UHGV virus genome: UHGV-1370141
Origin: a virus
Direction: 5' to 3' (one strand)
Length of the DNA: 64,000 bases
The position numbers and the translations under genes were made by a program. Of this stretch, positions 4,661 through 62,124 are shown one piece after another (position 1 is the first letter of the stretch; each line of letters starts with the position of its first letter). The notes below the pieces were generated by a model. That model was not told the DNA's origin. It saw only the letters and a program-made list of their open reading frames with translations, and did not search any database.

Positions 4661-6031
4661 TTAATCCCTCGAATATCTTAAAAGCAGATACACCATCGGA
4701 ATGTAATAGAACTGTGCGTCTTTCGGGAGCTTATAAACTTCCTCAAACAGTTTTAACGCAATTACCGACGGTAGCGGACGTTTATGCAGGTACAAGTACA
4801 AGCCGTATTCCAACAACGAACTGTAAGAACCGTCGTAGAACGTCTCGCTTAGCAAATACGGTTTAAAGGACAGCGGTAGGAAGGCCGGAATAGACTCCCC
4901 TTCGTTCCCACGATAGTTTTCAACTTCAACCGGTTCAAACGGTTTCCATTCTGGCCACTGACCGGGGAAACGTTGCGCCATCCCGTAACCTGGCTTTAAC
5001 TCTTCCGTAAAGAACCGGGTATCAGAGATCAACGACCACGTTACCGAGTTACGATGTTGCATCGTACGGAAAGTTTTCGTTTGCCACACCGTGCTGTCAC
5101 GTTTGTAATCTGCTAAGAACGTTGGCGACTGTTGCATCAGCGCTGTCCACACCGTTTCAATGTCTTCCACGTTCATCGGTGGATGCGGATAAATCTGAAT
5201 ATCCTTACCTACGGTACGTAACCCCAGCGCGCGCACAAACAGCGCTAAGAACACGTCGTAGTAAGCACGGCTACGCAAACCGTCGCTGTGACGATCGTGT
5301 GGGAACAACAGCGTGGCCGTTTCACCGTCGTAGAAACGTTTCACATACGTCTGTTCAATGTCTTCAATCGCGTCAACGACTTCCAGGAACGCACGGTACT
5401 CTTTCGGTGTGAGAAGTGTATCACCACCTGTCCAGGCACGCTCTGCAACGTAGTAGTATTCACGTACGGTACAACGACGAATCGTTTCTGCGGTTTCTGG
5501 GTCAACTTCGAAGAGTAACGTGTATTCGATGTTGTACGTCGCGACTTTGTTATTCGACATACGCACAACGTTGGTAACGTTAAACAACGCGAAACGACCG
5601 TCACCGATAGGGGCGATGAAAAAGCAACCCTCGTTAGGGATAATCGAATTTGCAATTGTTGCAGCGCCTGACATGCTGAACGTTTTGTTCGTGGTGTCTT
5701 GGCTTCGGTCGAGCGGTGTCGTTACACGCAGCTCCAACCCGATAATTTTCTCCACCTGTTGGTCAGGTGTAAGCACTTTCGAATCGAAAAACTTCTTGGC
5801 GTCGTTTCTTCCTTTCAGGAAGTTAAAGAAGTCCACCGTCCACGCTGACCCTTCCAGATACTTCATTAAGTATTGCTTTGGAATACGGTCTAAATCAGTA
5901 ACGGTTGTACGTGTGGGTTGCGTAACGATATTGGTGGTTTCTTTTACACCGTCCTGTGGTTTATTTAATTCGGGGATAGGCCGGTCTACGGGTTCAAATG
6001 TTGACGGCTTATCACGCTTCGCTTTGAGCAT
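4661..6031 (-). CDS. hypothetical protein (456 aa)
   Basis: ORF track. Confidence 0.6.
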   Translation of the reverse strand: MLKAKRDKPSTFEPVDRPIPELNKPQDGVKETTNIVTQPTRTTVTDLDRIPKQYLMKYLEGSAWTVDFFNFLKGRNDAKKFFDSKVLTPDQQVEKIIGLELRVTTPLDRSQDTTNKTFSMSGAATIANSIIPNEGCFFIAPIGDGRFALFNVTNVVRMSNNKVATYNIEYTLLFEVDPETAETIRRCTVREYYYVAERAWTGGDTLLTPKEYRAFLEVVDAIEDIEQTYVKRFYDGETATLLFPHDRHSDGLRSRAYYDVFLALFVRALGLRTVGKDIQIYPHPPMNVEDIETVWTALMQQSPTFLADYKRDSTVWQTKTFRTMQHRNSVTWSLISDTRFFTEELKPGYGMAQRFPGQWPEWKPFEPVEVENYRGNEGESIPAFLPLSFKPYLLSETFYDGSYSSLLEYGLYLYLHKRPLPSVIALKLFEEVYKLPKDAQFYYIPMVYLLLRYSRD

Positions 6032-7520
6032 TCTCTGTCCCTCGCATGGTAATCACAGTCGAGTTCAGCACCGTCAGCAAGACGCGGGCTTCTACGTTAG
6101 GAATCAGTTTATTAATGTCGTCGACAACACTGGGCGGTAATACGGGTTTATCCCACCACCAGTCCGGTACATCCCATTTCGGGAATAACCATTCTATCAA
6201 CACCTTCGCGGCTTTAGGATAAAGCTGAAGTGGCCACAGGTTCATCCCTCGCCAGTCGAACATCACCGATTCGGTTAGGTAGTAACTCTTGTTAACTTTT
6301 AAATCACGTCCTTTCAAAAAGAAGGTATTGTCTTCCCAATGATAGAAACGCGGTTCGATGATTTGGCCTTCTTCGAACAGCTCCACACGGAAGACGCCTG
6401 TCTGCCCGGTAGGGTCTATTGCACGACAGTGTTCGATATACGGCAACAAATCTGGATTCCACTCGTACGGTAAATCCTCCACAGATAACACTTTCGGTGA
6501 GCTCATGTTGTCTTCATCGAATACAACGTCTGTTCCGAAAACGTGTAAGAGTTTATCTTTTAACGGGGAATGTGTACGGTGGAACTGTTCTGTCGGTGAC
6601 AGTAGATACGGTAAACGAATATACTGACGGGTTTCGTTAATCCACCACGTCGAATCGAGATTCTTTTGTTGCGGATGACGATACACCAGTTCTTCGTTAG
6701 ACACCCACGGTGGATCTATCTCTGGCCAGTATTCATCAGGAAGCGGTGTCTGGTTGATGATATACGGATACGAAACCACAATCTCTTCGGGACGTTGATA
6801 AGAGAAACGCACGACGAATGTAGCTTCCCAGTGGTTCTCGTCTTTATCCCAGGCAGGTGTCTGTACGTCGTATACAGTCTCTAAGCGAGTAGGTGCATAG
6901 CGAACCGCAATAGATTCCTGTCCACCGGCAACGTTAGCAGCGCGAAACACGTCGGGTGTAAAGTACGCCTTGAGATAGGCTTTAAAATCATCAAACGTCG
7001 GTACACGAGTCCCTGCGGCGACATAACAGGCATTCAACAGTTTCAGTGCTGGCTTCGGAATATAATAAAACGCTTCTGACTCGGTCATTGTCGAATAGCG
7101 ACCCATGTCCACTAACGAGTCTAAACGGTTTGTCCAGCGCAATAACTCATCGCGAGAAGCACTGGTACGTCGTAACGTCACCGTTACGTTATACATCGTT
7201 CTAACGGGCCAGGCACGCACCTGATCGACGGAGTTTTCAAAAAAGTACGGTTCGGCTTGCTGACCAACCTGGCGATTGATTCTAGCCCACTCATCGCGTT
7301 CTTCTTCTACTTCAACATACACCTTTTCAGGCGAGCTGTACTCAACTTCTGTACCGTCGCCTAACGTGGAATCGGGTTGATGTGCGCTATTGAATTCATC
7401 AAGGAAAACAACCGCTGCTTTATCAATACCTGATTCATTAAGTACACGTTGTATAACGCCATCGATTATCGGTTTGCGAATGGTCGCGTCTAACGACGGA
7501 ATTTCAAAATACTGTTGCAT
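6012..7520 (-). CDS. hypothetical protein (502 aa)
   Basis: ORF track. Confidence 0.6.
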   Translation of the reverse strand: MQQYFEIPSLDATIRKPIIDGVIQRVLNESGIDKAAVVFLDEFNSAHQPDSTLGDGTEVEYSSPEKVYVEVEEERDEWARINRQVGQQAEPYFFENSVDQVRAWPVRTMYNVTVTLRRTSASRDELLRWTNRLDSLVDMGRYSTMTESEAFYYIPKPALKLLNACYVAAGTRVPTFDDFKAYLKAYFTPDVFRAANVAGGQESIAVRYAPTRLETVYDVQTPAWDKDENHWEATFVVRFSYQRPEEIVVSYPYIINQTPLPDEYWPEIDPPWVSNEELVYRHPQQKNLDSTWWINETRQYIRLPYLLSPTEQFHRTHSPLKDKLLHVFGTDVVFDEDNMSSPKVLSVEDLPYEWNPDLLPYIEHCRAIDPTGQTGVFRVELFEEGQIIEPRFYHWEDNTFFLKGRDLKVNKSYYLTESVMFDWRGMNLWPLQLYPKAAKVLIEWLFPKWDVPDWWWDKPVLPPSVVDDINKLIPNVEARVLLTVLNSTVITMRGTENAQSEA

Positions 7521-9568: not shown

Positions 9569-9593
9569 CTCACTAAGGTAATATATATCTGAG
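9569..9593 (-). promoter_or_regulatory. AT-rich promoter-like motif (class 1)
   Basis: CTCAGATATATATTACCTTAGTGAG on transcribed strand, ~25 nt upstream of 9545 start. Confidence 0.45.
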
Positions 9594-32459: not shown

Positions 32460-34559
32460 TTACTCAATAATCGTTGCTGCGACAGAATTGTCGTACAACG
32501 AAGCAGGACGTTTACGTGACGTATAGAAACGTACGTTGTCCAAGTTCTTCTGCTGTCCCTCAAACAACAACATCGGGATTGCAGAACGCATCGCAATCAG
32601 TGTATTGTGATCTTCGAAGCGTTTTCCTTCTGCGGCATCGGCATCCTCACTGTCAAACCCTACTGCCGGGAATGGGTTAGTAGGTGACTCAACACGAGAG
32701 ATTGCCAACATAATCGCGATGTGCGTCATCGGAATCCCTTTGAGCTTACGTTGGATATATTTGAACACGTAGAACAACGCATGAGTACATTGTTTTTCCG
32801 TGGCACCACGCATCTGAACGAGGGTAATCGGTTTAACCTTACCACTCTTCTTGCTCAAACGCATTGACTCGTCCGAGAACTGTTCGAAGTTATCTGACTT
32901 GTCCGATGCTACCGAACGTAAAATCAATTCCAACCCTGCTACAAACTCCGCCATAGATTCAGACCGATTCGTATAAATTAGGATCGGCCAGGACGGTTTC
33001 CATCCTTTTAGCGGAACACGCACCGTTTTCTTGCTGGGGAATACGAGCTTATCACGATTCTTCAAGAAGAAGCGAAGGAACGACTTAGAGAAGTTACCGC
33101 AGACGCCCATTCGAACGTCAATCGGATCTTCTGCCAGGATGTTCCCTTCTGCATCTAAACGAACAAACGTAAGGTCATTAATTTCCGGGAGTGCCGTTTC
33201 ATCAATATCGTCCAGGTCTTCATGATACGCAATCTGGCTAATCTCTGAATAGACTTCATCCGAAATTACCAGTTGGTATTCATCCCAGGTACCGTATTGC
33301 GGCTTCTCCAGTAAACTAATCCCTTTAACGGAGTTGTGCTTATACTCCGTGAGATAATCACGCATTCTTGGCGACAAGACCAAGTTCAGCAGATAACGCA
33401 GGAAGTCAAGGTGTTTCGTCGACAGAATACCTTGAGTGCCCTTTTCTGAAATTGCGGTTGACGCAAGGTGACCCGGTGATGTGCCAGGTGACAGGTTATA
33501 AATCAAGTCACCCATACACGTTGCACAGATAGTCTGTCGTGACATCCCTTTGCAACACATCGCGGTACGGAACTCGATAGGTTTGTTCAAGACTTTCTCA
33601 AACTCACCGTCTTCGAATCGTAACCACGGACCACCAGTACCTTCGAAGCGATAACGCATTCCTTTCATCGCTTTGAATTTCGCTTCTTCCAACGGCGAAT
33701 TCGTAAAGGTGTGTCTGTGTACGTGATGTGTACCACAGTCTTCGTAATCGAAGAACATCAGCACGTTAGCCGCTAACTGCAACTTACGCGATGCGTACTC
33801 TGCGTCTGCAATCTTGTCGGTATTATACAGGTGAGAACGCGATGTCGCACCTGCTTCTTTCAGTCGACTGATAACAGAATGCAAGCCGGTGAAGAAACCT
33901 TCCCATACCTGGTTAGAGTACACACGGGAGTCAATCTCTGAAGTCTTACCACGAATGTAAGCCTGGAGAATCTGATCCATTTTCAGTGTGCGGTCTAACA
34001 CAGACATGACAACTGGGTTGTTTGAGAGTCTCGGATCTTTAAAGATTTTCTCAATGAGTTGATAGGCTTCTTCTACCTTATCGTTACCTTCCTCATCGTA
34101 ACCCGTCGGATAGAGTTTAGACCATTCGATAATCAGCTTGAAGTTTTCATGCTGATAAATCTCCATCATCGTATCGTAGTCAATGGTAACACAATACGAC
34201 AACAGGTTTTTCACCGTCAGGTTAAACGCGTTTGCATAAACGTGCTGCGATAACAGGTAACGGGTATCGGCCAGATCCACTCCGGCCTTACGTGCTGCTA
34301 CAGCTGCCAACGACATAAAGCGCAGATGCGCATCGTCAGTTGCCGTGTCGCCATGCTTATACGCCATGTTCGACGAGATTGGCACTTGGGGATAAAACTG
34401 GGTTAATCCCCAATACGGCCAGCTCAACTTAATGTGTCGACCAGACATTCTCAACGTGACCCCATCGTCGAAGGACACGTCGTAAACGCCCCGAAGTAGC
34501 CACACCTGATCCGAATTCAACTTGCACAAGTCTCTTACGTGAACCGGAGTCGCCTTCAT
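32460..34559 (-). CDS. RNA polymerase beta'-like subunit, C-terminal module
   Basis: CATCMGDL ... ASTAISEKGTQGILSTKH resembles bacterial RpoC CAHCYGRDL ... AAQSIGEPGTQLTMRTFH (recalled). Confidence 0.7.
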   Translation of the reverse strand: MKATPVHVRDLCKLNSDQVWLLRGVYDVSFDDGVTLRMSGRHIKLSWPYWGLTQFYPQVPISSNMAYKHGDTATDDAHLRFMSLAAVAARKAGVDLADTRYLLSQHVYANAFNLTVKNLLSYCVTIDYDTMMEIYQHENFKLIIEWSKLYPTGYDEEGNDKVEEAYQLIEKIFKDPRLSNNPVVMSVLDRTLKMDQILQAYIRGKTSEIDSRVYSNQVWEGFFTGLHSVISRLKEAGATSRSHLYNTDKIADAEYASRKLQLAANVLMFFDYEDCGTHHVHRHTFTNSPLEEAKFKAMKGMRYRFEGTGGPWLRFEDGEFEKVLNKPIEFRTAMCCKGMSRQTICATCMGDLIYNLSPGTSPGHLASTAISEKGTQGILSTKHLDFLRYLLNLVLSPRMRDYLTEYKHNSVKGISLLEKPQYGTWDEYQLVISDEVYSEISQIAYHEDLDDIDETALPEINDLTFVRLDAEGNILAEDPIDVRMGVCGNFSKSFLRFFLKNRDKLVFPSKKTVRVPLKGWKPSWPILIYTNRSESMAEFVAGLELILRSVASDKSDNFEQFSDESMRLSKKSGKVKPITLVQMRGATEKQCTHALFYVFKYIQRKLKGIPMTHIAIMLAISRVESPTNPFPAVGFDSEDADAAEGKRFEDHNTLIAMRSAIPMLLFEGQQKNLDNVRFYTSRKRPASLYDNSVAATIIE

Positions 34560-36799
34560 TATTCTTCGCCCCTTTTCATTTTCACCAATTCAAACCCTTC
34601 ACAGCTGTGAATGTTTTTCATCATTCTGTCAATCTGCGAATCTCCTAATGGGAGCTTATTCCGGTCTACCAGTACGCCCGGATTGGAAGGAGTTTGAGAT
34701 CGGTACAGCCCTACTAAAATCTCTCGATGCACAGCAGGGTTATTTGCCCTATCGTGAACCTCTTCGTAGTTACCTGGACCATAACCCGCTAATAGTCGTT
34801 CTTCCGAAGGACCAGCCCATTTCAGCGTTTTATAGTTTACCGGATACGAACCACGTCCTTGGTTAGACGCATCAATCGTGCCCAGGTAGTTCAGGTACAT
34901 CGACGAAATACTTGAGAATTCACGTCCCGTTTTATCAAGCCGTAATGTTTCTACACCACCCACGTAAAACTCGTCTTTTGTCCATTCCTGTTTACCATCG
35001 TAATTGGTAATAAGCAGTTTCGACTTACGGGGTTTAAACTCACCTAAACGTTCACTGATTTCCACCGGAGTGTCATCAAGTTCGTGAGGTAAGTAAATGC
35101 GGATGGTGAAATCGTAAATCTCTTTAAAGAGTTCTCGCTGCAAATCCTCCGTAGGATGCGTAGCCTGTAACGTGTTCGCCCATTCTGGATTATAGCGTGA
35201 AAGGTAGTCCATCAGGATTTCCCAACACTCGCCAATACGCCCTTCATCCAGCATCGGTTTAAGACGCATCTTCAGTTGTTCAGATGCTGCTGACCAATAC
35301 ATGTGGAACAGCGCGGCGTAAGTAGAACGACGAATTACGGCGTTCATTGAACGTAGTACGTGAACACGTTCGCCGAACTCGTTAATTGGCATCTGTTCAA
35401 CTGGCAGTACACGACCCACAATCCCTTTCGTACCCGAACGGTCGGTAATCTTAGAAGACACCGTCACCGGGATCGGATAACGTACCGCGATACGAATTGT
35501 GTACGTGTTGATAGGATCGCTTAATCCACGCTGAACAGGTGAAGTCAGTTTAGAGATAATCTGTTGACTTACGTTCTCTTTACCGTATTCGCCGCGACGA
35601 ATTGCATCTTCAATCACTCCGCGAATTTCTTCACGAAACTCTGCGTAGACTTCGTACGTTTCAGATGCGAAAGCTTTCTCCAGCAACACACACGCTTTGG
35701 GAGACCAGATAACGTTTTTATCTCTCGACACGGAGAAATAGAAGCGAACAATCGCATTGTAGTAGTCCTTTAACGCCAATGCGTATTTGTCAAGCTCACG
35801 TTTGTTCTCTTCAGTACAGTTAATGTTATTCGTTCCATTACCGCATGACGTTTCATCACGCCAAACCTGAATATCAACAATGCGTGTTCCGCTACGTTCC
35901 ATCAGTTCGTGGTTGTTTTCCAAACGTGCTTTATAGTGTATCGGATCGGCATCCACGTAATCACAGTTATCGAAGAACGGAGAAACGTGTTGGGTTTCTC
36001 CTAAGGTTGCATCGATCGCTGCGTACAGGTCATCGAAACGACGAGAAGCGATAACTAACCCGTCATCACGAATCGCTTCACCCACGTCTGGGAAATAGCG
36101 CGGTACACGATTCCCCTCGGGATCGTTATAGCCGTAGGTATCCAGCAAGAATTCATCTTCACGTAAGGTTTTCTCAATAACTTTCAACCCATACCCGTGA
36201 AGCTTCTGTGCCGCTTCTTCGGAAATCGTGTAGGAATCTTCGATAATGTCTGGATGTGAAATGGTAACCGTTGGCAGCACCGCACTGTCTGCGAATTCAC
36301 CATCCACCATGCACGGCATTGTCGTCAGGATTTCATCCTTTTCTAACTGGTCGGTTTCACCACGTAACAAACTGCGCAGTTTTGGCGATTCCCATTTCTC
36401 GGAAGAGAACACGTTATCGTGATTAGTATAAAAGTTAATCTCGATAACATCTATCATTGTTTTGCCCGGAATACGGCATTCTGCACGACGGAAGAATATC
36501 GCGTGTTCCAGCGCACGGGAATCCCCACGACGGCCATAACGGGTAAACGTTGCGCGACGTTGTCTACCTTCCTTAGTTGTGTAATGACAGATGCTCCCAC
36601 TGTCTTCCACAATATCGTTAAACAGAAAATCGTGGTAATTGGTATCTGCTCCCGTAAAGTGAGGTGACGGCTCAGGATGATCAATCGGCACCGAGGACTT
36701 CATATGGTTACCTACCATCGATGCCCTTGCACCTGACACCTGTGCGATATTAACTTCACGGTCAGCGACGCTGCTCAATAGCTCAACTGGCGTTTTCAT
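34559..36799 (-). CDS. RNA polymerase beta-like subunit, C-terminal module
   Basis: SKITDRSGTKGIVGRVLPVEQMP resembles RpoB [24 protein letters not shown] (recalled); RBS AACCTAAAGGAG. Confidence 0.7.
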   Translation of the reverse strand: MKTPVELLSSVADREVNIAQVSGARASMVGNHMKSSVPIDHPEPSPHFTGADTNYHDFLFNDIVEDSGSICHYTTKEGRQRRATFTRYGRRGDSRALEHAIFFRRAECRIPGKTMIDVIEINFYTNHDNVFSSEKWESPKLRSLLRGETDQLEKDEILTTMPCMVDGEFADSAVLPTVTISHPDIIEDSYTISEEAAQKLHGYGLKVIEKTLREDEFLLDTYGYNDPEGNRVPRYFPDVGEAIRDDGLVIASRRFDDLYAAIDATLGETQHVSPFFDNCDYVDADPIHYKARLENNHELMERSGTRIVDIQVWRDETSCGNGTNNINCTEENKRELDKYALALKDYYNAIVRFYFSVSRDKNVIWSPKACVLLEKAFASETYEVYAEFREEIRGVIEDAIRRGEYGKENVSQQIISKLTSPVQRGLSDPINTYTIRIAVRYPIPVTVSSKITDRSGTKGIVGRVLPVEQMPINEFGERVHVLRSMNAVIRRSTYAALFHMYWSAASEQLKMRLKPMLDEGRIGECWEILMDYLSRYNPEWANTLQATHPTEDLQRELFKEIYDFTIRIYLPHELDDTPVEISERLGEFKPRKSKLLITNYDGKQEWTKDEFYVGGVETLRLDKTGREFSSISSMYLNYLGTIDASNQGRGSYPVNYKTLKWAGPSEERLLAGYGPGNYEEVHDRANNPAVHREILVGLYRSQTPSNPGVLVDRNKLPLGDSQIDRMMKNIHSCEGFELVKMKRGEE

Positions 36800-36828
36800 T
36801 TTAATGCTCCTTTAGGTTGATTCGGTAG

Positions 36829-36844
36829 GATAATATCTATCTCA
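36829..36844 (-). promoter_or_regulatory. AT-rich promoter-like motif (class 2)
   Basis: plus-strand ATAATATCTATCTC ~30 nt upstream of the 36799 start; same core at 58186, 60572, 50513. Confidence 0.4.
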
Positions 36845-48544: not shown

Positions 48545-50383
48545 TCAGACAGGGCTGTAGTTACCGGAAGCGAATGACATGTTGTAGTCACTGCCGAAGG
48601 AGTTCGGGCCGTTACCAGACAGAGTGAAGTTTTCACCGCCGTTGTTGAAGAACAACGTATTAGCCAGGCTATTGACTGCGGTAACACCATTCACTTGGAA
48701 GATGCAGTTATCACGCACGTAGTCCAGCAGCGCTTTGGCGAATTTCGGGTTGATTGCCAAATCGGTGGACTCGCCAGTTACGACCGGCTGTTTGCTGCCG
48801 AACAGGGAAGCGGCCAGCTTCAGCAGGTACAAACGCTGTTCAGTCGCGTTGAACTGACGGTGTGAGTAAGATTGCGCGTACAGGTAAGTGTAGGCATCGT
48901 GTTGGTTATCACCAACTTTGCTCAGAACAGACACCAGGTCCTGATCCTGGAAGCTACGTTTCTGGCTGTTGCTGAAATACTGACCGGAAACAGTCGGTAC
49001 GCCAGCGATAACAACGTGGTTGCAGGTGATGGTATTAACTTTCAGCATTTCAGCGAAACGCTGCGTGAACACCGTAGCACCTTTCGGAGCCATGTTGTCC
49101 AGGATGGTCAGGATGTTAGACAGTGTACCAGTGTTACCCTGGGAAACTTCACTGAACATCGTGGAGAGACCACCGATACCGTTACCAGCACGATGGTTCA
49201 CAACCAGCGCAGCTTCTGGGTAGGCGAACATGTTCAGGCACTCTTCGATAGCTTCGCGGTTGCCATCGATTTTGCTCAGGTCCGGACGTTTGTCACCCCA
49301 CTCTACGTATTCCATAACGCGGGAGAAACGACGATCGGTTTTGTTGAGAGAGTGCATGAAGCGTTCACGCCAGCCACCGATAGCGGCGATTTCTGCAAAG
49401 GCGGCCAGTTCAATCAGCTGACGTTCGATTGGTACCATAGCCCCGGAAGACTGAGAGTCCATCAGAGAAACAACAACTTCTGCTTGCAGCTGTTTGTAAT
49501 CCTGTACGCCATTTTCAGGTGCACGGCGGCCAGTGTAACGCAGGTTGATGTAACCCACACCCGCAACGCTCGGATAACCCTGAACACGTTCAGAGGACAT
49601 CAGCGTCGGGTTAGTATCGAAGCTACCGGTCTGAGTGTGTTCAACCTGAACCATCAGGTCAGCACGTTGTGCAGAGCCGTTAACGTCAGTCAGAGAACCT
49701 TCGTCTACCGCAGTTACCTGTGCAACGAAGCGATCGCCACGAGTCAGTTTCAGCTGACCCAGGTAGCCCGGAATACGGCCAAAGATACCCAGAGTCAGCT
49801 GACCCATCAGCTGGATAGCCCACTCTTCGGTCAGCGTTTTACCCAGGTCTGGAATGCAGTTCATTACCATGAATTGCACAGACGACAGGTTCTGCTGTTC
49901 GCAGATTTGTTTGGTGATGGAATCCATTACGCCAGCCTGACCGAACAGAGATGCCAGGGTGTAATAAGTTTCTTTACCGTTGATTTCACGGAAGCGTACA
50001 GACTGACCGTGTTCGAAGAACAGGATACCGTACATCCAGTGGCTGCCGTTTTCATCTGCTGGCGCAGCAACGTATGCCGCAGAACCCATTTCTGGATTCA
50101 CACCATCGATAACACCGCAGCGGAATTTGCTCAGGTACGGGTTACGTTCAACCATCTTCGCAATCAGCGCGGTGAAATGTGAAGCGGCAGAAACGTAGGA
50201 CATATAGCCGAACGCTTTATCGAAAGTGGAGATATTCTTAGACATACCACCGAAAGCATTTGCTGCGTGGGTGTTATCCACACTGCCTGCACCAGCACCT
50301 ACACCACCAAAAGACGGAGCCGGGTCTACACCAGCAGCGCCAGCATTTACGTTGTTAGGAATTTCGTTAAACTCTTTAGCCAT
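48545..50383 (-). CDS. chmA: 612-aa protein with Gly/Ala/Ser-rich terminal extensions; chimallin-like nuclear-shell candidate (alternative: structural protein)
   Basis: flexible N- and C-terminal segments, strong RBS, own terminator, immediately upstream of the RNAP beta' gene; identity inferred from context only. Confidence 0.45.
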   Translation of the reverse strand: MAKEFNEIPNNVNAGAAGVDPAPSFGGVGAGAGSVDNTHAANAFGGMSKNISTFDKAFGYMSYVSAASHFTALIAKMVERNPYLSKFRCGVIDGVNPEMGSAAYVAAPADENGSHWMYGILFFEHGQSVRFREINGKETYYTLASLFGQAGVMDSITKQICEQQNLSSVQFMVMNCIPDLGKTLTEEWAIQLMGQLTLGIFGRIPGYLGQLKLTRGDRFVAQVTAVDEGSLTDVNGSAQRADLMVQVEHTQTGSFDTNPTLMSSERVQGYPSVAGVGYINLRYTGRRAPENGVQDYKQLQAEVVVSLMDSQSSGAMVPIERQLIELAAFAEIAAIGGWRERFMHSLNKTDRRFSRVMEYVEWGDKRPDLSKIDGNREAIEECLNMFAYPEAALVVNHRAGNGIGGLSTMFSEVSQGNTGTLSNILTILDNMAPKGATVFTQRFAEMLKVNTITCNHVVIAGVPTVSGQYFSNSQKRSFQDQDLVSVLSKVGDNQHDAYTYLYAQSYSHRQFNATEQRLYLLKLAASLFGSKQPVVTGESTDLAINPKFAKALLDYVRDNCIFQVNGVTAVNSLANTLFFNNGGENFTLSGNGPNSFGSDYNMSFASGNYSPV

Positions 50384-50430
50384 TTTATTTATCCTTTAAA
50401 GGTTTAATACAATTGTAGTGTTGGTTCACG

Positions 50431-50546
50431 TAGATAACATATACCTGAGATATTTTAGAATGCGTCTAGAACACACATAACTCAAAATAGTTAACCACCG
50501 AACCATCACATAGATAATATCATTCTCAGATATTTTTCAATGTGAG
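50431..50546 (+). promoter_or_regulatory. two tandem ~35-bp promoter-like direct repeats in a divergent intergenic region
   Basis: TAGATAACATATACCTGAGATATTTTAGAATGCG and TAGATAATATCATTCTCAGATATTTTTCAATGTGAG. Confidence 0.4.
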
Positions 50547-51773: not shown

Positions 51774-54071
51774 TTACTCCTCATCGAATGTTTCTTCTTC
51801 ATCTTCCTCCTCATCATCCTCACCTGCCCTTTCTGATTTCTTGACATACTGTACTTCCGCAAGCTCTTTATACAATCCTTCGTCTTCAGCGGTTTTATCG
51901 TAGAAATCCGACAGTAAACGCATACGGTTTTTATCCATCATGAACACACCTAAGCATTCAAGGATGTGATAGTACGGTTCTACGGTGGAGAACGCCGTGC
52001 GACGAATGTCCGCAATTTCGATCAATTCTTTAGGAATACCGTAGTTCTCTACTAAGTGCTCTGGCAGAATCAACGTTTTGTATTTACGGAAATTGTTTTC
52101 CTCAAACCACGCGGTTGCACCGTTTCGGATAATCGGATCTTCGATGCTGTCCAACCACTCTTTAATCTTGGTTTTGTTTTCTAAAACCACCGGTAGTTTT
52201 ACAGCGTCGTAAGGCGGTTCTTCCAAATGGCCAAACTTCGGACCAAAGATGGCGTTGTACATTCGATGATAGTGATAGTTTTTCTCGTCCTTCTCGTTAT
52301 AAGCGCTACGTTCCTTAATGTTCGTTGTTTTCAGATAGCCCGGATTACCCGAACGAATGGAATCCATAATGGTGTGTTCAATCTGCGCAACCTTTTCCAG
52401 TAACGGAATGATTTCAATCTGGTCACCACGTGCGACGACTTCACACAGTCCTTTAATAGTATTCTTAAACTCCTTCATGATAATCGGTGGAATGTTCGAG
52501 GTACGTAAAGACACCCCTTTTACTTCCAGCTCGGGATCTTTTTTCAACTGACCTTCCTGACCGGTAATCAGTGAGAAGTAGTGTTTTGCTTTAGTCGTTA
52601 ATGCAAACGAATCGAACTTAAATTCGTTCTTCATCGCGTACAAGAACAGACGTTCTTTCGCTACACCGATATTCGCAGACATACTCGCCATCAGGTGACG
52701 GAGGTGTTGCGTTGCAATATAAATCATTGCATTGGATACACGAGTTGCTTCTTCACCGTAATGCTTACCAGTATACCAAACCGCCCACCATTGTGCAGTC
52801 ATCATTGTAGAGTCGGTATCTGAAACCACACCTACCCGACGAACCACATCCGGCATTCTTGCGATATTAATCGGTAAGTTTTTAGTGGTCAGGATATTGC
52901 GAATTAAAAGTGCGTACTTACCGATGGTTTTCTGTAAGAACAGTGCGGAACGAATCAGCTCCTTATAGTCGTCCTGCTGATCCCACGGTAATGGCTTTTT
53001 CTTATCGTCGAGTTTCTTAACGTGGCTGAACGCTTTGCCCATCGGCACCACGTCAGTACGGAACTGGGAGATGATGATCTGCATGTCACCATCAATGGTT
53101 TTTTCCGCAGCATCCCAGTCTTCGACTTCGTCAATCATCTCACGAGAAATCAACGCGGTAATAAAACCACGCATGAACTGATCGTTGTACTTCGCAAGAT
53201 GATAAAAATCACCCATGTAAACAAATGCCGCGCGAGTGAGCGGAGAAACATTTGATACATAGTGCTCAACAAACTCCATCCCCTCTTCGTTCTTGAAATA
53301 AAAGTCCGCAGAGTAATGAATCACGTCCATCACTTCTTCTACGGTCGGATAATGAAGCTCGTACGTATCCATACATTTCTTGAAGCTATTCCAATCGGTT
53401 AACGTGCCGATGGACAAGAAATGATCGATGATACGTGACGGTGTGTCGTAATGACGATTACCGCCTAATAAACGTTCGTTACCTGCGTTACCGAATGAGG
53501 TTGCAGTACGGCAGGTTGATGTTAAAACAGAGTGTGAAGACTGGTTAAAGATGATCGTGTACGGAGAAGAGAATGCGCCCGACATCCCGTTGTTCAGAGT
53601 CTTGACTGCGTTCTGTTCATTCTTTTTGTTAATCTGTAAAACTCTATTACCTGCTGCTTCGGCAGCAAACATCTCTTTTTTCACCGCTGCACGTTTAGCT
53701 ACGTTAGCGGCAGTGAATTCTGATAGCTTGGAACGTTTGATGTGTTCTGGGATATAAAACGTTAACGACGGTGCGGAGATAATCTGTTTATCGATTACGG
53801 TTTTAAACAGTTTATCAACAGTTGTGTATTTCTCTTCACGGTCTCCTGTTTTCTGATTACGCACCCACATCTTACACAGCGGTGATTCGGTTGATAACTC
53901 ACCGCCAGGTGCCAACATCTCGTCAACTTCTTTACGACATAATTCCAAAGGGTATTTTTGTGCGGTTACGTTGTGAATGTATAGCGCAACCTGTTCACGA
54001 TAAGCATCGTTAATATCGATATCACGATGGTACTCGTCTACCGATAAACGAAAAGGAGAATTGTATTCCAC
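51774..54071 (-). CDS. hypothetical large protein (765 aa) with DTDS motif and acidic C-terminus; polymerase-like?
   Basis: VVSDTDSTMM resembles family-B polymerase motif C and a K-H-Y lies ~60 aa later, but motifs A and B were not found. Confidence 0.6.
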   Translation of the reverse strand: MEYNSPFRLSVDEYHRDIDINDAYREQVALYIHNVTAQKYPLELCRKEVDEMLAPGGELSTESPLCKMWVRNQKTGDREEKYTTVDKLFKTVIDKQIISAPSLTFYIPEHIKRSKLSEFTAANVAKRAAVKKEMFAAEAAGNRVLQINKKNEQNAVKTLNNGMSGAFSSPYTIIFNQSSHSVLTSTCRTATSFGNAGNERLLGGNRHYDTPSRIIDHFLSIGTLTDWNSFKKCMDTYELHYPTVEEVMDVIHYSADFYFKNEEGMEFVEHYVSNVSPLTRAAFVYMGDFYHLAKYNDQFMRGFITALISREMIDEVEDWDAAEKTIDGDMQIIISQFRTDVVPMGKAFSHVKKLDDKKKPLPWDQQDDYKELIRSALFLQKTIGKYALLIRNILTTKNLPINIARMPDVVRRVGVVSDTDSTMMTAQWWAVWYTGKHYGEEATRVSNAMIYIATQHLRHLMASMSANIGVAKERLFLYAMKNEFKFDSFALTTKAKHYFSLITGQEGQLKKDPELEVKGVSLRTSNIPPIIMKEFKNTIKGLCEVVARGDQIEIIPLLEKVAQIEHTIMDSIRSGNPGYLKTTNIKERSAYNEKDEKNYHYHRMYNAIFGPKFGHLEEPPYDAVKLPVVLENKTKIKEWLDSIEDPIIRNGATAWFEENNFRKYKTLILPEHLVENYGIPKELIEIADIRRTAFSTVEPYYHILECLGVFMMDKNRMRLLSDFYDKTAEDEGLYKELAEVQYVKKSERAGEDDEEEDEEETFDEE

Positions 54072-54125
54072 GGCTGTCCCCGAAAAAGGCAGTTTAACTC
54101 GGCTATAAGGATGGCAGGTAACGTG

Positions 54126-54165
54126 AAAAAAGAAAAAAAAAATAAACCCTCTCCGAAGAGAGGGT
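54126..54165 (-). terminator. terminator hairpin
   Basis: long A-run then ACCCTCTC-CGAA-GAGAGGGT. Confidence 0.55.
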
Positions 54166-54172
54166 CTTAACT

Positions 54173-54586
54173 TTAACCGGCTTCGTTTTCAATGATTTCG
54201 ATTTCGACGTCATTGAATCCGCGTGCGTTGAGCGCTGCTACCAGATCGTCTTTTTCTTGTTTGTTGTCCAACTGAACCACAAACCGTGCAGTGAGGCTTT
54301 TCACCACACGAACTTCACGTACCCACGCATCCGCAGTGACGCCGATGCGGTTACTGGAGTCCTTAAACAACATGTAGTTGTACGCGGTCAAATCGTTAAC
54401 CGGTTGTCCAACCAAAGACGAGTAAATGTTTTTCTGGATAGCGGCTAAATCTTCACCTGAGTTTTTAGCGAGCTCATAACCCACCTTTGACGCGAGTACA
54501 CGGACTCGCGTTTCGTTACCACGTAACGGGGTATCGTAAACGATGTTTACAATTGAACCCGGTTCGATGTTACTGAAGTCGTACAT
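54173..54586 (-). CDS. hypothetical small protein (137 aa), operon member
   Basis: ORF track; last gene of nine-gene cluster. Confidence 0.55.
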   Translation of the reverse strand: MYDFSNIEPGSIVNIVYDTPLRGNETRVRVLASKVGYELAKNSGEDLAAIQKNIYSSLVGQPVNDLTAYNYMLFKDSSNRIGVTADAWVREVRVVKSLTARFVVQLDNKQEKDDLVAALNARGFNDVEIEIIENEAG

Positions 54587-54589
54587 TTT

Positions 54590-55192
54590 TCACCCTTTCA
54601 TTTTAATCAAGAATGTAAATGACAAGAACAAACTACCCTGACCATAACCCGGATTATAGACTTTAATAGCAAGTTCCAGTCCAGAGACTTTTCCCTTATG
54701 CGCTGTACGAAACAGTTCTAAAGCAGGTCGACATTTCTCGTCAAACATTCTGACCAGCTCCTCACGAAACGTCTCAACAGCGTGCTCACGAAGAACATCC
54801 CAAGAGGAATCGCCTTGCAATTTACAGAACTCGTAAATTTCCAAAAGTGGTTTCATGTCATCGAGAACTGCGTCTGTATAACAGGTCTCCATCATTGACA
54901 TGAAATTCCACTGTCGATATTCCTTATTCAACCCTTTTAGGTATTTATCGAGTTTGGCTAACTCATTCTTGTTACCAGGAAACTTAATCGTACCGGAACG
55001 CTCGTTCAAGCATTTGTTGAAAATGCGCGTGACGTCATCGGGATTTTCAATATCCGTAGGTAATGAAATCGTTAGCTGGTCAAACAAATTCATCGATTTT
55101 ATCAGTAACTCTTTATAGAAGTCACCGCCGGAAACATATTCCAGTAAACCTAAATTCGGCTGAACAAAGTGATCGCCACGCACTTTATACAT
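54590..55192 (-). CDS. hypothetical small protein (200 aa), operon member
   Basis: ORF track. Confidence 0.55.
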   Translation of the reverse strand: MYKVRGDHFVQPNLGLLEYVSGGDFYKELLIKSMNLFDQLTISLPTDIENPDDVTRIFNKCLNERSGTIKFPGNKNELAKLDKYLKGLNKEYRQWNFMSMMETCYTDAVLDDMKPLLEIYEFCKLQGDSSWDVLREHAVETFREELVRMFDEKCRPALELFRTAHKGKVSGLELAIKVYNPGYGQGSLFLSFTFLIKMKG

Positions 55193-55624
55193 TCAAACCT
55201 CTACTCGAATAAAACCTTTTCCCATCTCTTTCATAAACAAAGAGACTCTCGACCTTTTTGATCCTTCCTCTGCGGTATAGCCGCTTTCTCGCCACAAACT
55301 CTCCACCAACAAACGTATACGATGGTAGTCGATGCCTTTATCAATCTCTTCCCACATTAAAGAATGCGAAAAGATAATAACCTCATCTTCAGGATACATT
55401 TGTGACAACTGGGTGAGAATAAAATAGCGGTTGGGCGGGATGAACGTCAAAAACGTTTCACCCTCGCCCATCCGTTTAACGATAGAGCGTACCGATTCCT
55501 CAGCATACTTCGCCAGAAACAGATACGCCAAATCAGGTTTCACTTTACATTGATCCGCCATTTTAACTCGCGAAAGCAGTTGGTCCCGAAAGAACACTTC
55601 CGAAACTTCCATATAGAGTATCAT
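55193..55624 (-). CDS. hypothetical small protein (143 aa), operon member
   Basis: ORF track. Confidence 0.5.
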   Translation of the reverse strand: MILYMEVSEVFFRDQLLSRVKMADQCKVKPDLAYLFLAKYAEESVRSIVKRMGEGETFLTFIPPNRYFILTQLSQMYPEDEVIIFSHSLMWEEIDKGIDYHRIRLLVESLWRESGYTAEEGSKRSRVSLFMKEMGKGFIRVEV

Positions 55625-56069
55625 AACAGATAATCACCAATTCGCTAAAAGACTCACCTGACCAGTTTTCTAACTGACCTGGGAACATAGAGTTAATAAG
55701 TCCGGCTAACCCTGTTTGTGTTTCCAATTCACGAATGAGAATATCGGCAGCGGTTCCGATTGCGAGAATATGTTGGTCCTCAGTACCCTGCGTGGAAAGG
55801 AAGCTAATACTTTCTACCGTAGTACCTGGGATGGTATTCTCATCATACGCAACGGACATCACCATTTCTTTAAACAGTTCAGGATTACGGCTTTTCACAC
55901 CGATAATGTACGCAGTTGCAAAGTCCTCATAGAGTCGACGTATATCGTACTCTGATACGGACAACCTGCTTGTTTCGAGAACCTGCACTAAAACTTCGCG
56001 CACGGCGTCGTAGAACTTCAACCTGCCGTAATCAAGTACATGTTGTGCTACGTGAAAGTAGTATCTCAT
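55563..56069 (-). CDS. hypothetical small protein (168 aa), operon member
   Basis: ORF track. Confidence 0.5.
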   Translation of the reverse strand: MRYYFHVAQHVLDYGRLKFYDAVREVLVQVLETSRLSVSEYDIRRLYEDFATAYIIGVKSRNPELFKEMVMSVAYDENTIPGTTVESISFLSTQGTEDQHILAIGTAADILIRELETQTGLAGLINSMFPGQLENWSGESFSELVIICYDTLYGSFGSVLSGPTAFAS

Positions 56070-56578
56070 TAGAGCATCTTCCCTGCCAAGTTACCGAGCA
56101 ATAACTCAACAACGCTGAGGAGTCCAACCGACATCGTTTGAATAGCCTCAGGGTTCTCGAATTCGGGGTATTTTACCTGTTCGTAACGAACCAGAAACTC
56201 CACAGCACCAGGCTTATTGGTACAATAACGCGCACCTACCCATGTACCAAAACGGGTGAACCAATGCGGGTGACTAGAGACCGCGAGTAAGTACGCTTTG
56301 GCCACATCTTGAACGGCTTTCACATAAGTGAGCGCTCTTTCACCCTCAATGATATACCCCTGGGCATTTAACTCGCGAGAGATAAATTCAATGGTACCCT
56401 GTATCGCAAAACGATCCAGCTTAGGAAACTCCCCAGTTATTCCATACTGAATCGCATAGTTTAACACTTCGTTAAGATCGGTATTGATTTCTCGCAATAT
56501 CGAGTTGGGATCGAATTCGGTTAATGGACCACAAATGAATTGATAGTCCGGGATAATAAAGTAGCTCTCACGCACCAT
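56069..56578 (-). CDS. hypothetical small protein (169 aa), operon member
   Basis: ORF track. Confidence 0.5.
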   Translation of the reverse strand: MVRESYFIIPDYQFICGPLTEFDPNSILREINTDLNEVLNYAIQYGITGEFPKLDRFAIQGTIEFISRELNAQGYIIEGERALTYVKAVQDVAKAYLLAVSSHPHWFTRFGTWVGARYCTNKPGAVEFLVRYEQVKYPEFENPEAIQTMSVGLLSVVELLLGNLAGKML

Positions 56579-56972
56579 AAATCACTCCTGTAGTATACAT
56601 TCGCCATACACCACCACCTACATGAAACAGAAGAAAATCTGATTTCGGTAAGAATGGGACTTCTTCCTCTAAGCGTGCCCATAACGACTTAGAGGCTAAC
56701 AGCTCGGTTTCAATAACATGATTAAGGCAGTAACTGTTCGGTTTCTCCAACTCAACGATGGGATACCGCTTCATTATATCTAAGAACAACTCTTGAACTG
56801 TCCGCTTATCGATTTGGAACTTCCGTCGCATCACTTCCAGTCTTACTAACTGTTCGACATAATAGTCCACAGTATCCGCCACATCGAGGTACTGAAGAAA
56901 CGCTGTCCGTTTAACTACTTTTAGAATCTCTGCGGTTGTCCACGGAAACTCAATAAAGATCGTCATAGGCAT
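56568..56972 (-). CDS. hypothetical small protein (134 aa), operon member
   Basis: ORF track. Confidence 0.5.
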   Translation of the reverse strand: MPMTIFIEFPWTTAEILKVVKRTAFLQYLDVADTVDYYVEQLVRLEVMRRKFQIDKRTVQELFLDIMKRYPIVELEKPNSYCLNHVIETELLASKSLWARLEEEVPFLPKSDFLLFHVGGGVWRMYTTGVIYGA

Positions 56973-57384
56973 CAGTTACCTTCTTTGGAATAAATCGGAG
57001 GAAGTGTCCGTCTAAACGAAAGTAGAAACGCCAGCCGCGTGGAGGAATGCCCATTTCCTCGCACAACGCGTTTCGTACATAACTCGTTATCAAACGAACA
57101 TCTTCTTCCGTTGATTTCGGTCTAAACGACCTGACTATCGTGGTCACACAATGAGTATCCCATAAACCGGTCTCTGTAAAGTTCGGTATGAGATACTCAA
57201 GTAATGACAGAATCACGTACTTCAGTTGTTCCGCATCTGTACCAGAATACGACGACAACCTATCGTCCGCGAGTATGCGTTGGTACGCTTTATACGTCAC
57301 GTGTTCGAGTAGGGTGATTCGGATCGTATCTTTTTTCTGGGAAACAGTTGCGGTAGTGGACAAATCGGATATCTTCTCCAACAC
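56950..57384 (-). CDS. hypothetical small protein (144 aa), operon member
   Basis: ORF track; 5' end overlaps upstream gene, true start may be internal. Confidence 0.45.
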   Translation of the reverse strand: MLEKISDLSTTATVSQKKDTIRITLLEHVTYKAYQRILADDRLSSYSGTDAEQLKYVILSLLEYLIPNFTETGLWDTHCVTTIVRSFRPKSTEEDVRLITSYVRNALCEEMGIPPRGWRFYFRLDGHFLRFIPKKVTDAYDDLY

Positions 57385-57919
57385 GAAGCTCCATCATTGC
57401 AATCTGGCCACGTGGTGTTAAGTGGGGTTCTATCTCAACCGTAAGGTAAGGATTAAACGGTTGGTTTACCGCCTCGAACCCTTGCTTTACTAATTGCTCA
57501 ACCTCACACAACAACACATCGTAACAATCATCAAAAGCCAATCCCAATAGATACGACTTTGGACGTAAAACACAAACTTCACGCTGTTCAAACCCTACGG
57601 GTGTTTCGCCAAACACGGTCTGTTCAATACGTAACCGACGCGTTTGGATCGTTTTCGGTGGGCTCATTTTGCCACTGTTCACCAGAAGGTTCGTCAATAC
57701 AAAAGAATCTGTGTAGTCTTCTAAAAAGTCCGGTAATCGTGTATTAGGCATTCGCGGAATAGAATAAAAAATGTCCTCCAATGCAGTGTGTATCAGTTGT
57801 ACAGTAACGGCCTGTTTCTCCTTTACGGTCATCCGCAAAGCGGGAGCGTAGGTTGTTTCTTCCACCGCTGCCCAGAAGTTATGATAAACTGTAGCTGGAT
57901 TGAAGTGTATTTTGACCAC
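57290..57919 (-). CDS. hypothetical small protein, operon member
   Basis: ORF track; probable internal start near 57832 overlapping upstream stop. Confidence 0.45.
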   Translation of the reverse strand: MVKIHFNPATVYHNFWAAVEETTYAPALRMTVKEKQAVTVQLIHTALEDIFYSIPRMPNTRLPDFLEDYTDSFVLTNLLVNSGKMSPPKTIQTRRLRIEQTVFGETPVGFEQREVCVLRPKSYLLGLAFDDCYDVLLCEVEQLVKQGFEAVNQPFNPYLTVEIEPHLTPRGQIAMMELRVGEDIRFVHYRNCFPEKRYDPNHPTRTRDV

Positions 57920-58152
57920 GTTTGCACAACTCCGTTTTTGTAAGAAAATGGACTGGAATGGTCACGACCTAAAGCACCAATCATAAACCAAGCGTCCGAA
58001 CCAAAATATCTTTCTGCAATCTTTAAGCAATCGCTGGGTAGGTTGTGTATCCCAGGATAAATCAGTTCCTGCATCGCTGTTAGAATTTCCTCAGGACGAT
58101 AGCGAACTGAATGGCTAGAGTCTGGCAGAAAACCAAAAAGTACGCGCGACAT
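57829..58152 (-). CDS. hypothetical small protein (107 aa), first gene of operon
   Basis: start moved to MSRVLF ATG preceded by AAAGGAGTATTTAAAGTTA; the track's longer N-terminus would cover the promoter-like motif. Confidence 0.5.
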   Translation of the reverse strand: MSRVLFGFLPDSSHSVRYRPEEILTAMQELIYPGIHNLPSDCLKIAERYFGSDAWFMIGALGRDHSSPFSYKNGVVQTWSKYTSIQLQFIITSGQRWKKQPTLPLCG

Positions 58153-58185
58153 TAACTTTAAATACTCCTTTAAGGGAACATCACA

Positions 58186-58200
58186 GAGATAATATCTATA
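58186..58200 (-). promoter_or_regulatory. AT-rich promoter-like motif (class 2 variant)
   Basis: plus-strand GAGATAATATCTATA ~35 nt upstream of the corrected start. Confidence 0.4.
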
Positions 58201-58318: not shown

Positions 58319-59131
58319 ATGAGTGTCATCGACTACTGTCTACGGAGAATACGTCGAGAGATTCCAGAACCGATTCTTCGCGCTGCGTTTGTACCCAAAA
58401 ATCTTCGCTATTACGGTGTTGCGTCTTCCTTAGATAACGAGATTACTGAAAAGGTATTTAAAGAATACCTTATCCCAGAAGTTTCCCGTCTAGGTCAATA
58501 CACCGAAATCGACCTCCAAGGTTTACCTTTTGAGAACGACACCCAGGATTACTACTCACGTATCTATTACCTGGATGACATTAAGACCGGGGGTAGACCG
58601 ATACTGGACGTCCACATTGCCGTAACGCCGGTGGCAGGGCAAGCGTACACCTTACCCCCAGCAGGATCTTATTTAGACGGGGCAACTTCAGGGGTGCTGG
58701 CCTCCACGCAACAAGTAGTGGATAGTCAATCTGCAATGCCGCGTATCTCCTCACCCGAAGTTAAGAAACTTGGGCCGAACACCATCAAAATCAAAGACCC
58801 AGGAATGTTCGTCTACGCAACTAAGCTTCAAGTTAAGTTTGCAATGTCTGATGACTTAAACGAAATCAAACCGGCCTTCTATCCGGTAGTTGCAGATATG
58901 GCACTGTACGCCACTAAGCAGGTCATCTACAACAAAATGATTTTCGATATGGATTCAGGTCATCTTGAAAACGGTATGGAGTTCGGGGCGTTTAAAAACG
59001 TTATCGAAGGCTATTCCGACGCCGGGGAAATGTTCAACGACAACCTACCACGCCTACAGCGTGCGATGGTTCACAACGACGACGCAGGCAACCGTTACAA
59101 CTACATGTCTGGCGGTCGTTTCAAATCTTAA
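58319..59131 (+). CDS. hypothetical protein (270 aa)
   Basis: ORF track; RBS AGGAG. Confidence 0.6.
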   Translation: MSVIDYCLRRIRREIPEPILRAAFVPKNLRYYGVASSLDNEITEKVFKEYLIPEVSRLGQYTEIDLQGLPFENDTQDYYSRIYYLDDIKTGGRPILDVHIAVTPVAGQAYTLPPAGSYLDGATSGVLASTQQVVDSQSAMPRISSPEVKKLGPNTIKIKDPGMFVYATKLQVKFAMSDDLNEIKPAFYPVVADMALYATKQVIYNKMIFDMDSGHLENGMEFGAFKNVIEGYSDAGEMFNDNLPRLQRAMVHNDDAGNRYNYMSGGRFKS

Positions 59132-60563: not shown

Positions 60564-60588
60564 ACTCACTAAAATAATATCTATCTCT
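60564..60588 (-). promoter_or_regulatory. AT-rich promoter-like motif (class 2)
   Basis: plus-strand ACTCACTAAAATAATATCTATCTCT ~45 nt upstream of 60520 start. Confidence 0.4.
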
Positions 60589-61388: not shown

Positions 61389-62041
61389 TTCTGTTACCTC
61401 GTTCTGTTACTACTACTCGTTCTGTTGTACGTCGCTATACCCCGACGTGTGGGTTAATGGGACGCGTTGAACGTCTGTTGAGGCGCAGCAGGCAGTGGCA
61501 GCAATGACAGCAAGGGCAGCAATGGTACAAACGCCAACGCGAATAAAAAACGCTACTGTCACTGAACACAGCTTCAGAATACTGACAATAACGCAAAAAG
61601 GGTGTCGCTAACGGGTGTCGAGCCCCAGCCTCGGTGTGTAGCCACGTCACCAGGCATAGCGACAAAGTTCGGTACTGGTCAAACACAGCATGACATGGGA
61701 CGATGAAGGTTTACAGGTGATCATCGACCAGTACCGTCGAGTTAACACGTAACTCTCAATTCACATTACAGGGTATTCACGTTACACTTAGGGGAAATAC
61801 CCAATAATTAAATTCTTGGTGGGTGCAGGTGGGAGGTTTTATCCTCCCACCGTACAACCGTTTAGGTGGTCTAACCACCAGGGTCTCACGACCCTAACGT
61901 AAGTCCGAACTTAATCGGTAGGTGTTTACACGTTTTTAAGGAGCTTTCTACCCGTGAGCAAGAGCAGAAGTTATCAGAACAACCGACGCTCAGTTGAAGG
62001 CTGACGAGTTTGTAACTCTTGTTCGATTGCTCTAATCTGGG

Positions 62042-62114
62042 CGACCAATGGCAGGATTCGAACCTGCGAAATAACCGATTATTAGTCGGGTGTTAATTCC
62101 TCTAACTTCAATGG
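62042..62114 (-). tRNA. tRNA-like gene, possibly degenerate (anticodon loop reads as AAU)
   Basis: hand-folded cloverleaf: T-arm GCAGG-TTCGAAT-CCTGC, D-arm GTTA/TAAC with GG loop; but A at position 8, a U-U acceptor mismatch and a C-U anticodon-stem mismatch. Confidence 0.4.
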
Positions 62115-62124
62115 TCTAAATCCA

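Follow-up and report, generated by a model that had tools for sequence, protein, structure and literature searches.

The 64,000-nucleotide (nt) stretch of UHGV virus genome UHGV-1370141 analysed here, which we refer to as the window, is DNA of a nucleus-forming, SPN3US-like jumbo phage (Chimalliviridae). At 54173-58152 it carries nine consecutive minus-strand open reading frames (ORFs) of 107-209 amino acids (aa), numbered g1 to g9 below, flanked by a portal-adaptor gene (58319-59131, plus strand) and a DNA polymerase gene (51774-54071, minus strand). By comparison of the encoded proteins, this block is shown to be the orthologue of Salmonella phage SPN3US gp9-gp17, gene for gene and in the same order. 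The gene block as such is known though uncharacterised, and dozens of sequenced jumbo phages carry it, annotated as hypothetical; the window adds a new and diverged copy, not a novel kind of system. The nine genes and the elements that bound them are listed here with SPN3US orthologues, PHROG families and, for some genes, the ratio of nonsynonymous to synonymous substitution rates (dN/dS).

58187-58199, minus strand: AT-rich promoter element ATAGATATTATCT, exact match; predicted start, a G, at 58182 (30 nt before the g1 ATG)
57829-58152, minus strand: g1, 107 aa, basic (isoelectric point 9.0); SPN3US gp9 orthologue; phrog_9874 (E 3.6e-42, full length); dN/dS 0.12; in all relatives
57290-57919, minus strand: g2, 209 aa, GTG start; SPN3US gp10 orthologue; phrog_8359 (E 2.7e-63); first 30 codons overlap the end of g1 out of frame
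56950-57384, minus strand: g3, 144 aa, starting at GTG (or at TTG one codon later); SPN3US gp11 orthologue; phrog_8134 (E 1.1e-43); dN/dS 0.06
56568-56972, minus strand: g4, 134 aa; SPN3US gp12 orthologue; phrog_9510 (E 1.5e-41); dN/dS 0.11
56069-56578, minus strand: g5, 169 aa; SPN3US gp13 orthologue; PHROG 8024; best conserved family of g1-g8 across genera
55563-56069, minus strand: g6, 168 aa, acidic; SPN3US gp14 orthologue; phrog_8126 (E 3.2e-39, in two stretches)
55193-55624, minus strand: g7, 143 aa; SPN3US gp15 orthologue; phrog_9694 (E 8.4e-34)
54590-55192, minus strand: g8, 200 aa; SPN3US gp16 orthologue; phrog_8007 (E 2.8e-36); fastest-evolving member
54173-54586, minus strand: g9, 137 aa, SH3-fold; SPN3US gp17 / phiKZ gp49 family; Pfam PF20287 SH3DP
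54126-54167, minus strand: predicted intrinsic terminator with a 10-base-pair stem (54167-54144, 5 GC pairs), a 4-nt GNRA-like loop and a T-run to about 54126

Conservation of the block and its reading frames

In 10 annotated phages from the five genera compared (Seoulvirus, Erskinevirus, Machinavirus, Wellingtonvirus and Derbicusvirus), all nine families are present as single genes in unchanged order, the sole exception being g7, which is undetectable in Derbicusvirus, where an equal-sized gene stands in its place. SPN3US genes 9-17 (SPN3US_0009-0017) share with the window the nine families, once each, their order and orientation, the flanking adaptor-type gp8 and polymerase gp18 genes, the promoter motif and the terminator; an equivalent nine-gene block with promoter motif and terminator is found in Erwinia Asesino and phiEaH2, Caitlin and Machina, Kwan and Wellington, and Cronobacter CR5 and Phobos. 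These phages differ from the window in cassette sequence, which is 31-47% identical at the aa level where the DNA polymerases are 67-80% identical, and their public annotations truncate or miss g2, g3 and g7. In SPN3US numbering the block is gp9-gp17, the polymerase gp18 and chimallin gp22; the corresponding ORFs of the window encode a divergent family-B DNA polymerase (51774-54071, minus strand), 80% identical to its Salmonella-phage counterparts, and the counterpart of chimallin (48545-50383; SPN3US YP_009153316).

Searching with the nine proteins joined (tblastn) recovered the whole block in 63 phage records, led by Erwinia phage Asesino at 47% identity, with SPN3US at 42%. At the DNA level the region gave two short matches of about 75% identity in the phage collection (Salmonella phage SPAsTU and Erwinia phage pEa_SNUABM_29) and no near match, so that the window phage, judged by its sequence, is a new species or genus. 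Relatives closer than the annotated phages came from metagenomes only, where two were recovered, L018 (more distant, 55-90% aa identity) and L020 (closer, 98-100%); the nine families keep their order in metagenome relatives too. The database entry P0024, a hypothetical protein assigned to Shigella flexneri 2a, is a g2 homologue with 73% identity, which hints that the closest relatives of the window phage infect Shigella or Escherichia.

The original prediction, made from the DNA letters without database searches, had described nine ORFs packed head-to-tail, and both their coordinates and their long forms were upheld by start-codon conservation in alignments of stop-to-stop ORFs from 12 relatives. 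Three junctions are dual-coding overlaps on the minus strand, namely g1/g2 (57829-57919, 91 nt), g2/g3 (57290-57384, 95 nt) and g6/g7 (55563-55624, 62 nt); the remaining junctions are overlaps of 23, 11 and 1 nt and separations of 0 and 3 nt, and a Shine-Dalgarno-like motif accompanies all nine starts. A shorter g2 beginning at the ATG at 57832 was rejected: the upstream GTG/ATG is kept in 13 of 13 genomes and the internal ATG is missing in Caitlin and Kwan, and the N-terminal extension of 29 residues is conserved at the aa level. We likewise rejected a shorter g7 (ATG at 55561), the upstream ATG being kept in all relatives and the internal one not. For g3, a gene that gene callers skip or truncate in the metagenome relatives, the alignment shows a GTG or TTG retained at the start position in every genus except Derbicusvirus. 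Nucleotide identity to L018 reaches 95.6%, 90.5% and 74.2% in the g1/g2, g2/g3 and g6/g7 overlaps against 64-83% in single-coding flanks, a rise of the kind expected from dual coding.

In the public SPN3US record (NC_027402 / JN641803), gp10 and gp11 begin at internal ATGs (180 and 99 aa), genes 10, 11 and 15 being affected, and annotations of the relatives disagree on the starts of the counterparts of these three genes. Start-codon conservation indicates that SPN3US genes 10, 11 and 15 encode longer proteins that overlap the preceding genes. Public annotation is wrong or incomplete for three genes of the block, as it overlooks conserved out-of-frame overlaps of 62-95 nt.

A PHROG search assigned one family, of unknown function, to each of the nine proteins (E 1e-34 to 1e-67), with the matches of g1-g8 to the families listed above running full length. 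The g6 protein has conserved N- and C-terminal domains with a linker of variable length between them, and gives two-domain matches in relatives. All-against-all profile comparison (hhalign) gave no sign of paralogy among the nine genes, with nothing above 4% probability. Against the relative at 55-90% aa identity, dN/dS was 0.05-0.16 wherever dS was unsaturated, and nearly all differences from the 98-100% identical relative were synonymous; all nine genes, g3 included, are under purifying selection. Cassette dN is nevertheless 1.5-8 times the dN of the DNA polymerase, and g8 is only 55% identical to its counterpart in a relative whose DNA polymerase is 92% identical. In L020, g5 (5998-6507, against 56069-56578 of the window) carries 32 synonymous differences where its neighbours carry 2-11, an excess that suggests a recombination patch inside the operon.

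Promoter, terminator and flanking signals

The single promoter-like motif claimed upstream of the block proved to be an exact match to ATAGATATTATCT, conserved in relatives and placed 30-45 nt ahead of the g1 ATG. Eleven relatives keep the element before gene 1, together with a G seven bases past ATATTAT; the spacer around them varies. Allowing up to three mismatches, ATAGATATTATCT occurs 40 times in the window compared with 15.4 +/- 4.2 times in shuffled sequence. Intergenic copies oriented towards the gene also stand upstream of three small-gene clusters in the window, of the chimallin gene (two copies, 44 and 124 nt upstream, predicted to start transcription at 50507 and 50427) and of the pair of genes for RNA polymerase beta subunits (32460-36799), where the element lies 24 nt upstream of the first of the two genes (34559-36799; predicted start 36823). 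The intergenic copies have the form (A/T)ATATTA(T/C) with a G seven bases downstream:

50427-50524, minus strand: intergenic copies, chimallin gene
36823-36840, minus strand: intergenic copy, RNA polymerase beta-subunit genes
60567-60584, minus strand: intergenic copy
9571-9588, minus strand: intergenic copy
1782-1799, minus strand: intergenic copy

The chimallin gene of SPN3US is likewise preceded by two copies of the element, and those of phiKZ, RAY and PCH45 by related TATATTAC-like cores. In phiKZ-related phages, early promoters of the virion RNA polymerase (RNAP) consist of an extended AT-rich element with the start 6 nt downstream, the AR9 form being AAATATATATTAT-6N-G+1 (PMC5312081); the early-type site of the window reads ATAGATATTAT-CTCTGT-G. 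The window type resembles the AR9 promoters and the TATATTAC-type promoters of phiKZ in its AT-rich (G/T)ATATTAT core, in the G seven bases downstream and in its placement upstream of chimallin and non-virion RNA polymerase (nvRNAP) genes, but differs in the flanking consensus, which is the partly palindromic ATAGATATTATCT. Because this architecture is like that of virion-RNAP early promoters and is shared with chimallin and nvRNAP genes, the block promoter most likely belongs to the virion-RNAP early class and the operon, by analogy, most likely switches on early.

Scanning and motif searching inside the cassette found no strong terminator and no further promoter motif, and sigma-70-like promoters are not in excess in the region (10 sites against 15 expected). 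Two other upstream motifs were considered as internal promoters and rejected, CTTATAGC of the polymerase gene and GAT-NN-TATGA of the adaptor gene; their extended versions are not enriched in the window, and none lies in the cassette.

The strong terminator claimed for the end of the operon also held, as a hairpin and T-run at 54126-54167 conserved in relatives. The intergenic region behind g9 folds at -28 kcal/mol. Searching Rfam gave no RNA family anywhere in the operon region. A GC-rich hairpin and T-run stand directly 3' of the SH3-protein gene in 15 of 15 relatives, including phiKZ, PhiPA3, RAY, PCH45 and PhiEaH1; with a terminator after this gene in every clade examined, the block and the polymerase gene form separate units across the whole family.

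In the interval from the terminator to the start of the polymerase gene (54072-54125, minus strand), SPN3US-like phages conserve TTTTTTCACGT...CTTATAGC(C/T)GAG, which may serve the polymerase gene as a separate promoter belonging to a third class; the extended CTTATAGC pattern has no other copies in the window. On the other side of the block, the adaptor gene (58319-59131, plus strand; 270 aa, Pfam DUF7484) is a homologue of SPN3US gp8 and phiKZ gp42, the latter forming the dodecameric portal-to-stopper adaptor (cryo-electron microscopy (cryo-EM), PMC13250141). About 34 nt upstream of its ATG, on its own strand, ...GAT(C/G)(C/G)TATGA... is conserved, a motif similar to phiKZ late promoters of the TATG type.

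Gene 9 and the baseplate ring family

The statement that none of the nine proteins carries a recognisable motif stood for g1-g8 and failed for g9, which matches Pfam PF20287 (SH3DP) with E 8.2e-29 and 100.2 bits (cut-off 25), residues 7-125 aligning to positions 1-122 of the 122-position profile. Iterated searching from g9 (jackhmmer) reaches phiKZ gp49 and counterparts in six other chimallivirus clades, making g9 the sole block member tied to other clades in this way. A phmmer search matched PDB 11lx_V, 'SH3 fold domain-containing protein' (E 2.2e-6; 137 residues, 28 chains of two entries); the family profile also matches 9xqs_M (PHIKZ049), a match that is not independent, as the profile contains gp49. 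With SPN3US gp17, g9 shares 54% identity. It resembles phiKZ gp49 (PHIKZ049; PDB 9xqs) in Pfam family, in length, in its slot just ahead of the polymerase gene (end of g9 at 54173, polymerase start at 54071) and in the terminator that follows, and differs in that identity is about 19% and that the ring has been seen for gp49, whereas g9 is known from its sequence.

In the 2026 cryo-EM atlas of phiKZ, gp49 makes up the hexagonal ring HR1 in the inner peripheral part of the baseplate as 12 dimers that link through a beta-sheet 'handshake' (PMC13250141). Mass spectrometry of SPN3US virions (Table S4) gave about 20 spectra for gp17 when particles were complete and no spectra when they lacked tails, and Table S1 of the same virion paper flags phiKZ ORF049 as a virion protein. 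By sequence, g9 is a member of this baseplate ring (HR1) family, a tail-associated virion protein in SPN3US. Matches to virion structural families had been named beforehand as a finding that would speak against the original prediction; one was found, for g9 with the phiKZ gp49 family, while the SPN3US orthologues of g1-g8 are absent from virions. The Pfam family entitled 'SH3 fold domain associated with phage DNA polymerases' is, judged by structure and proteomics, a baseplate ring protein, and caution is advisable with functions assigned from gene neighbourhood near the DNA polymerase of chimalliviruses. A structural gene that appears to end an operon with the chimallin/nvRNAP type of promoter also bears on the timing of gene expression.

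These data bear directly on a different view of the block, in which it supplies replisome accessory subunits around the divergent family-B polymerase, with the SH3 protein as polymerase partner. The SH3 gene lies immediately upstream of the family-B polymerase gene in all relatives, and the order of block followed by polymerase is kept in every chimallivirus clade examined; PF20287 was named from this gene neighbourhood, and Iyer et al. suggested the SH3 protein as a possible polymerase subunit and found no recognisable sliding clamp in these phages (PMC7824862). An antisense-oligomer (ASO) knock-down screen called phiKZ gp49 a DNA polymerase interactor and gave it a strong knock-down phenotype. 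However, gp49 sits in the baseplate by cryo-EM and SPN3US gp17 in the tail fraction, so the neighbourhood argument that named the SH3DP family fails for its founding member. A conserved terminator stands between block and polymerase gene in every clade, g1-g8 show no nucleic-acid-enzyme or clamp-like signature, and they evolve far faster than the polymerase. We therefore regard a replisome role as unlikely.

Genes 1-8 and the role of the block

Sequence searches of Pfam, NCBIfam and the PDB returned no match for g1-g8, and no likeness to a known anti-defence or takeover protein was found in the general libraries searched (Pfam, NCBIfam, function-assigned PHROGs and the PDB). Because none of g1-g8 has a hydrophobic segment, the eight proteins are predicted to be soluble; all seven others besides the basic g1 are acidic. 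The proteins detected by mass spectrometry in SPN3US virions (Table S4) include gp8, gp17 and gp21 but not gp9-gp16, and the 40 proteins of the phiKZ virion atlas do not include gp43-gp48.

Structure prediction and fold searching, put forward earlier as a check on each protein, were carried out for g5 and for the 180-aa core of g2, and neither of the two AlphaFold models, of which one is confident, has a neighbour in the PDB. The g2 core model is of moderate quality (predicted local distance difference test score (pLDDT) 72). The predicted fold of g5 is a three-stranded sheet with five helices, and in a set of 1.84 billion clustered proteins the g5 family is represented only 17 times. At least one of g1-g8 thus combines a confident predicted fold with no solved neighbour. 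Among predicted viral structures, the g5 model matched its own orthologues; it matched more weakly small uncharacterised chimallivirus proteins (one entry with a template modelling (TM) score of 0.61-0.70 and E 2e-4; Mortimer with probability 0.95) and, with low scores, proteins of PhiEaH1, PDCC-1, Miami and Aphrodite1. Three further g5 matches (P0013, P0016 and P0017) are scrambled concatenations of SPN3US gp13 fragments, with more than one matching stretch in each; apparently they arose from mis-assembly or chimeric reads, and they were excluded from alignments.

We lean towards reading the locus as a gp9-gp17-type block expressed from one early messenger RNA (mRNA), with g1-g8 as soluble, clade-specific, non-virion proteins of the set-up phase. 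The nine cistrons would be transcribed as a single mRNA from the AT-rich promoter (start near 58182) to the terminator at 54167-54126, and the overlapping or abutting stops and starts would couple their translation, tying protein amounts together. Within the infected cell, g1-g8 would most likely act in the set-up phase, in take-over or in establishing the compartment or replication factory, which is the weakest step of the proposal; they are possibly partners of one another, and most likely neither virion parts nor classical variable anti-defence genes. Several points weigh against this reading. Early timing leans on the likeness of a promoter motif, and a baseplate gene would be unexpected as the last cistron of an early operon; the motif could be not strictly early, or g9 could have a second, unrecognised promoter. 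That gp9-gp16 are missing from SPN3US virions is a negative mass-spectrometry result of a single study, g6 weakly matches phrog_17386, 'virion structural protein' (E 2.5e-4), and models were made for two of the eight proteins. In SPN3US, a phage with genetics, the eight conserved, apparently non-virion orphan proteins form a defined target set.

The same absence from virions would also fit assembly factors, and g1-g8 might instead be morphogenetic helpers (chaperones, scaffolds or assembly factors) for baseplate or neck, co-expressed with g9 and not retained in the particle. The placement of g9 in a baseplate protein family, the phiKZ gp42-type adaptor as divergent neighbour and the tight predicted translational coupling, which suits stoichiometric assembly factors, all point that way. 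Yet the operon promoter is of the chimallin/nvRNAP type and not the TATG type of the adaptor gene, eight helpers seem too many for a single small ring protein, other baseplate genes are found at different sites of the genome, and transposon sequencing (Tn-seq) found the g9 homologue non-essential in PCH45 although the block is strictly conserved. On balance, a role in morphogenesis appears fairly unlikely.

Every chimallivirus clade examined has 7-10 small genes in the equivalent slot. The phiKZ gp43-gp48 genes and the small-gene runs of PhiPA3, RAY, PCH45, SPLA10, PhiEaH1 and KpLz-2_45 share with the window the arrangement of adaptor, PhuZ in some, 7-10 same-strand genes, SH3 protein, terminator and polymerase, and small proteins from several of the clades give weak to moderate structural matches to the g5 model. 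They differ in gene number and sizes and have no sequence or profile-profile similarity to g1-g8: jackhmmer and hhalign comparisons of g1-g8 with the slot genes of phiKZ, PhiPA3, RAY, PCH45, SPLA10, PhiEaH1 and KpLz gave no signal, and the extended g5 family did not reach these genes either. The PhuZ tubulin gene lies between the adaptor gene and the small-gene run in RAY, PCH45, SPLA10, PhiEaH1 and KpLz-2_45 (loci L013-L017); none is found at that position in SPN3US-like phages, the window included.

A broader version of the proposal would make the small-gene run from adaptor to gp49 an ancient Chimalliviridae module, its fold and order kept while its sequence diverged, and g1-g8 an early, stoichiometric, non-virion assembly. 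We hold this to be fairly unlikely. If true, the g1-g8 assembly could be part of the machinery that establishes the early vesicle, nucleus or replication factory, and the conserved long dual-coding overlaps would enforce its stoichiometry.

The original prediction had instead raised, as a possibility that nothing in the sequence proves, an accessory cassette of host-takeover or anti-defence type, which would make the block an exchangeable unit of the variable regions of jumbo phages. Small, orphan, fast-evolving proteins behind an early-type promoter are what such a cassette might contain, and the 7-10 slot genes do lack detectable sequence similarity between clades. The strict synteny of the nine genes speaks against that picture: number and order are invariant over five genera, with no gain, loss or swap seen apart from a possible divergence of g7 in Derbicusvirus. 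Purifying selection acts on all nine genes, at least one belongs to a structural protein family (g9), and the predicted g5 fold appears to recur in other clades, which favours vertical descent over exchange. An exchangeable accessory cassette is thus very unlikely. For g1-g8, a host-takeover role as such may still hold.

Outside the block, ARAGORN predicts a tRNA-Ile gene with the unusual anticodon AAT at 62040-62116 (minus strand); the equivalent region of SPAsTU contains a tRNA gene cluster.

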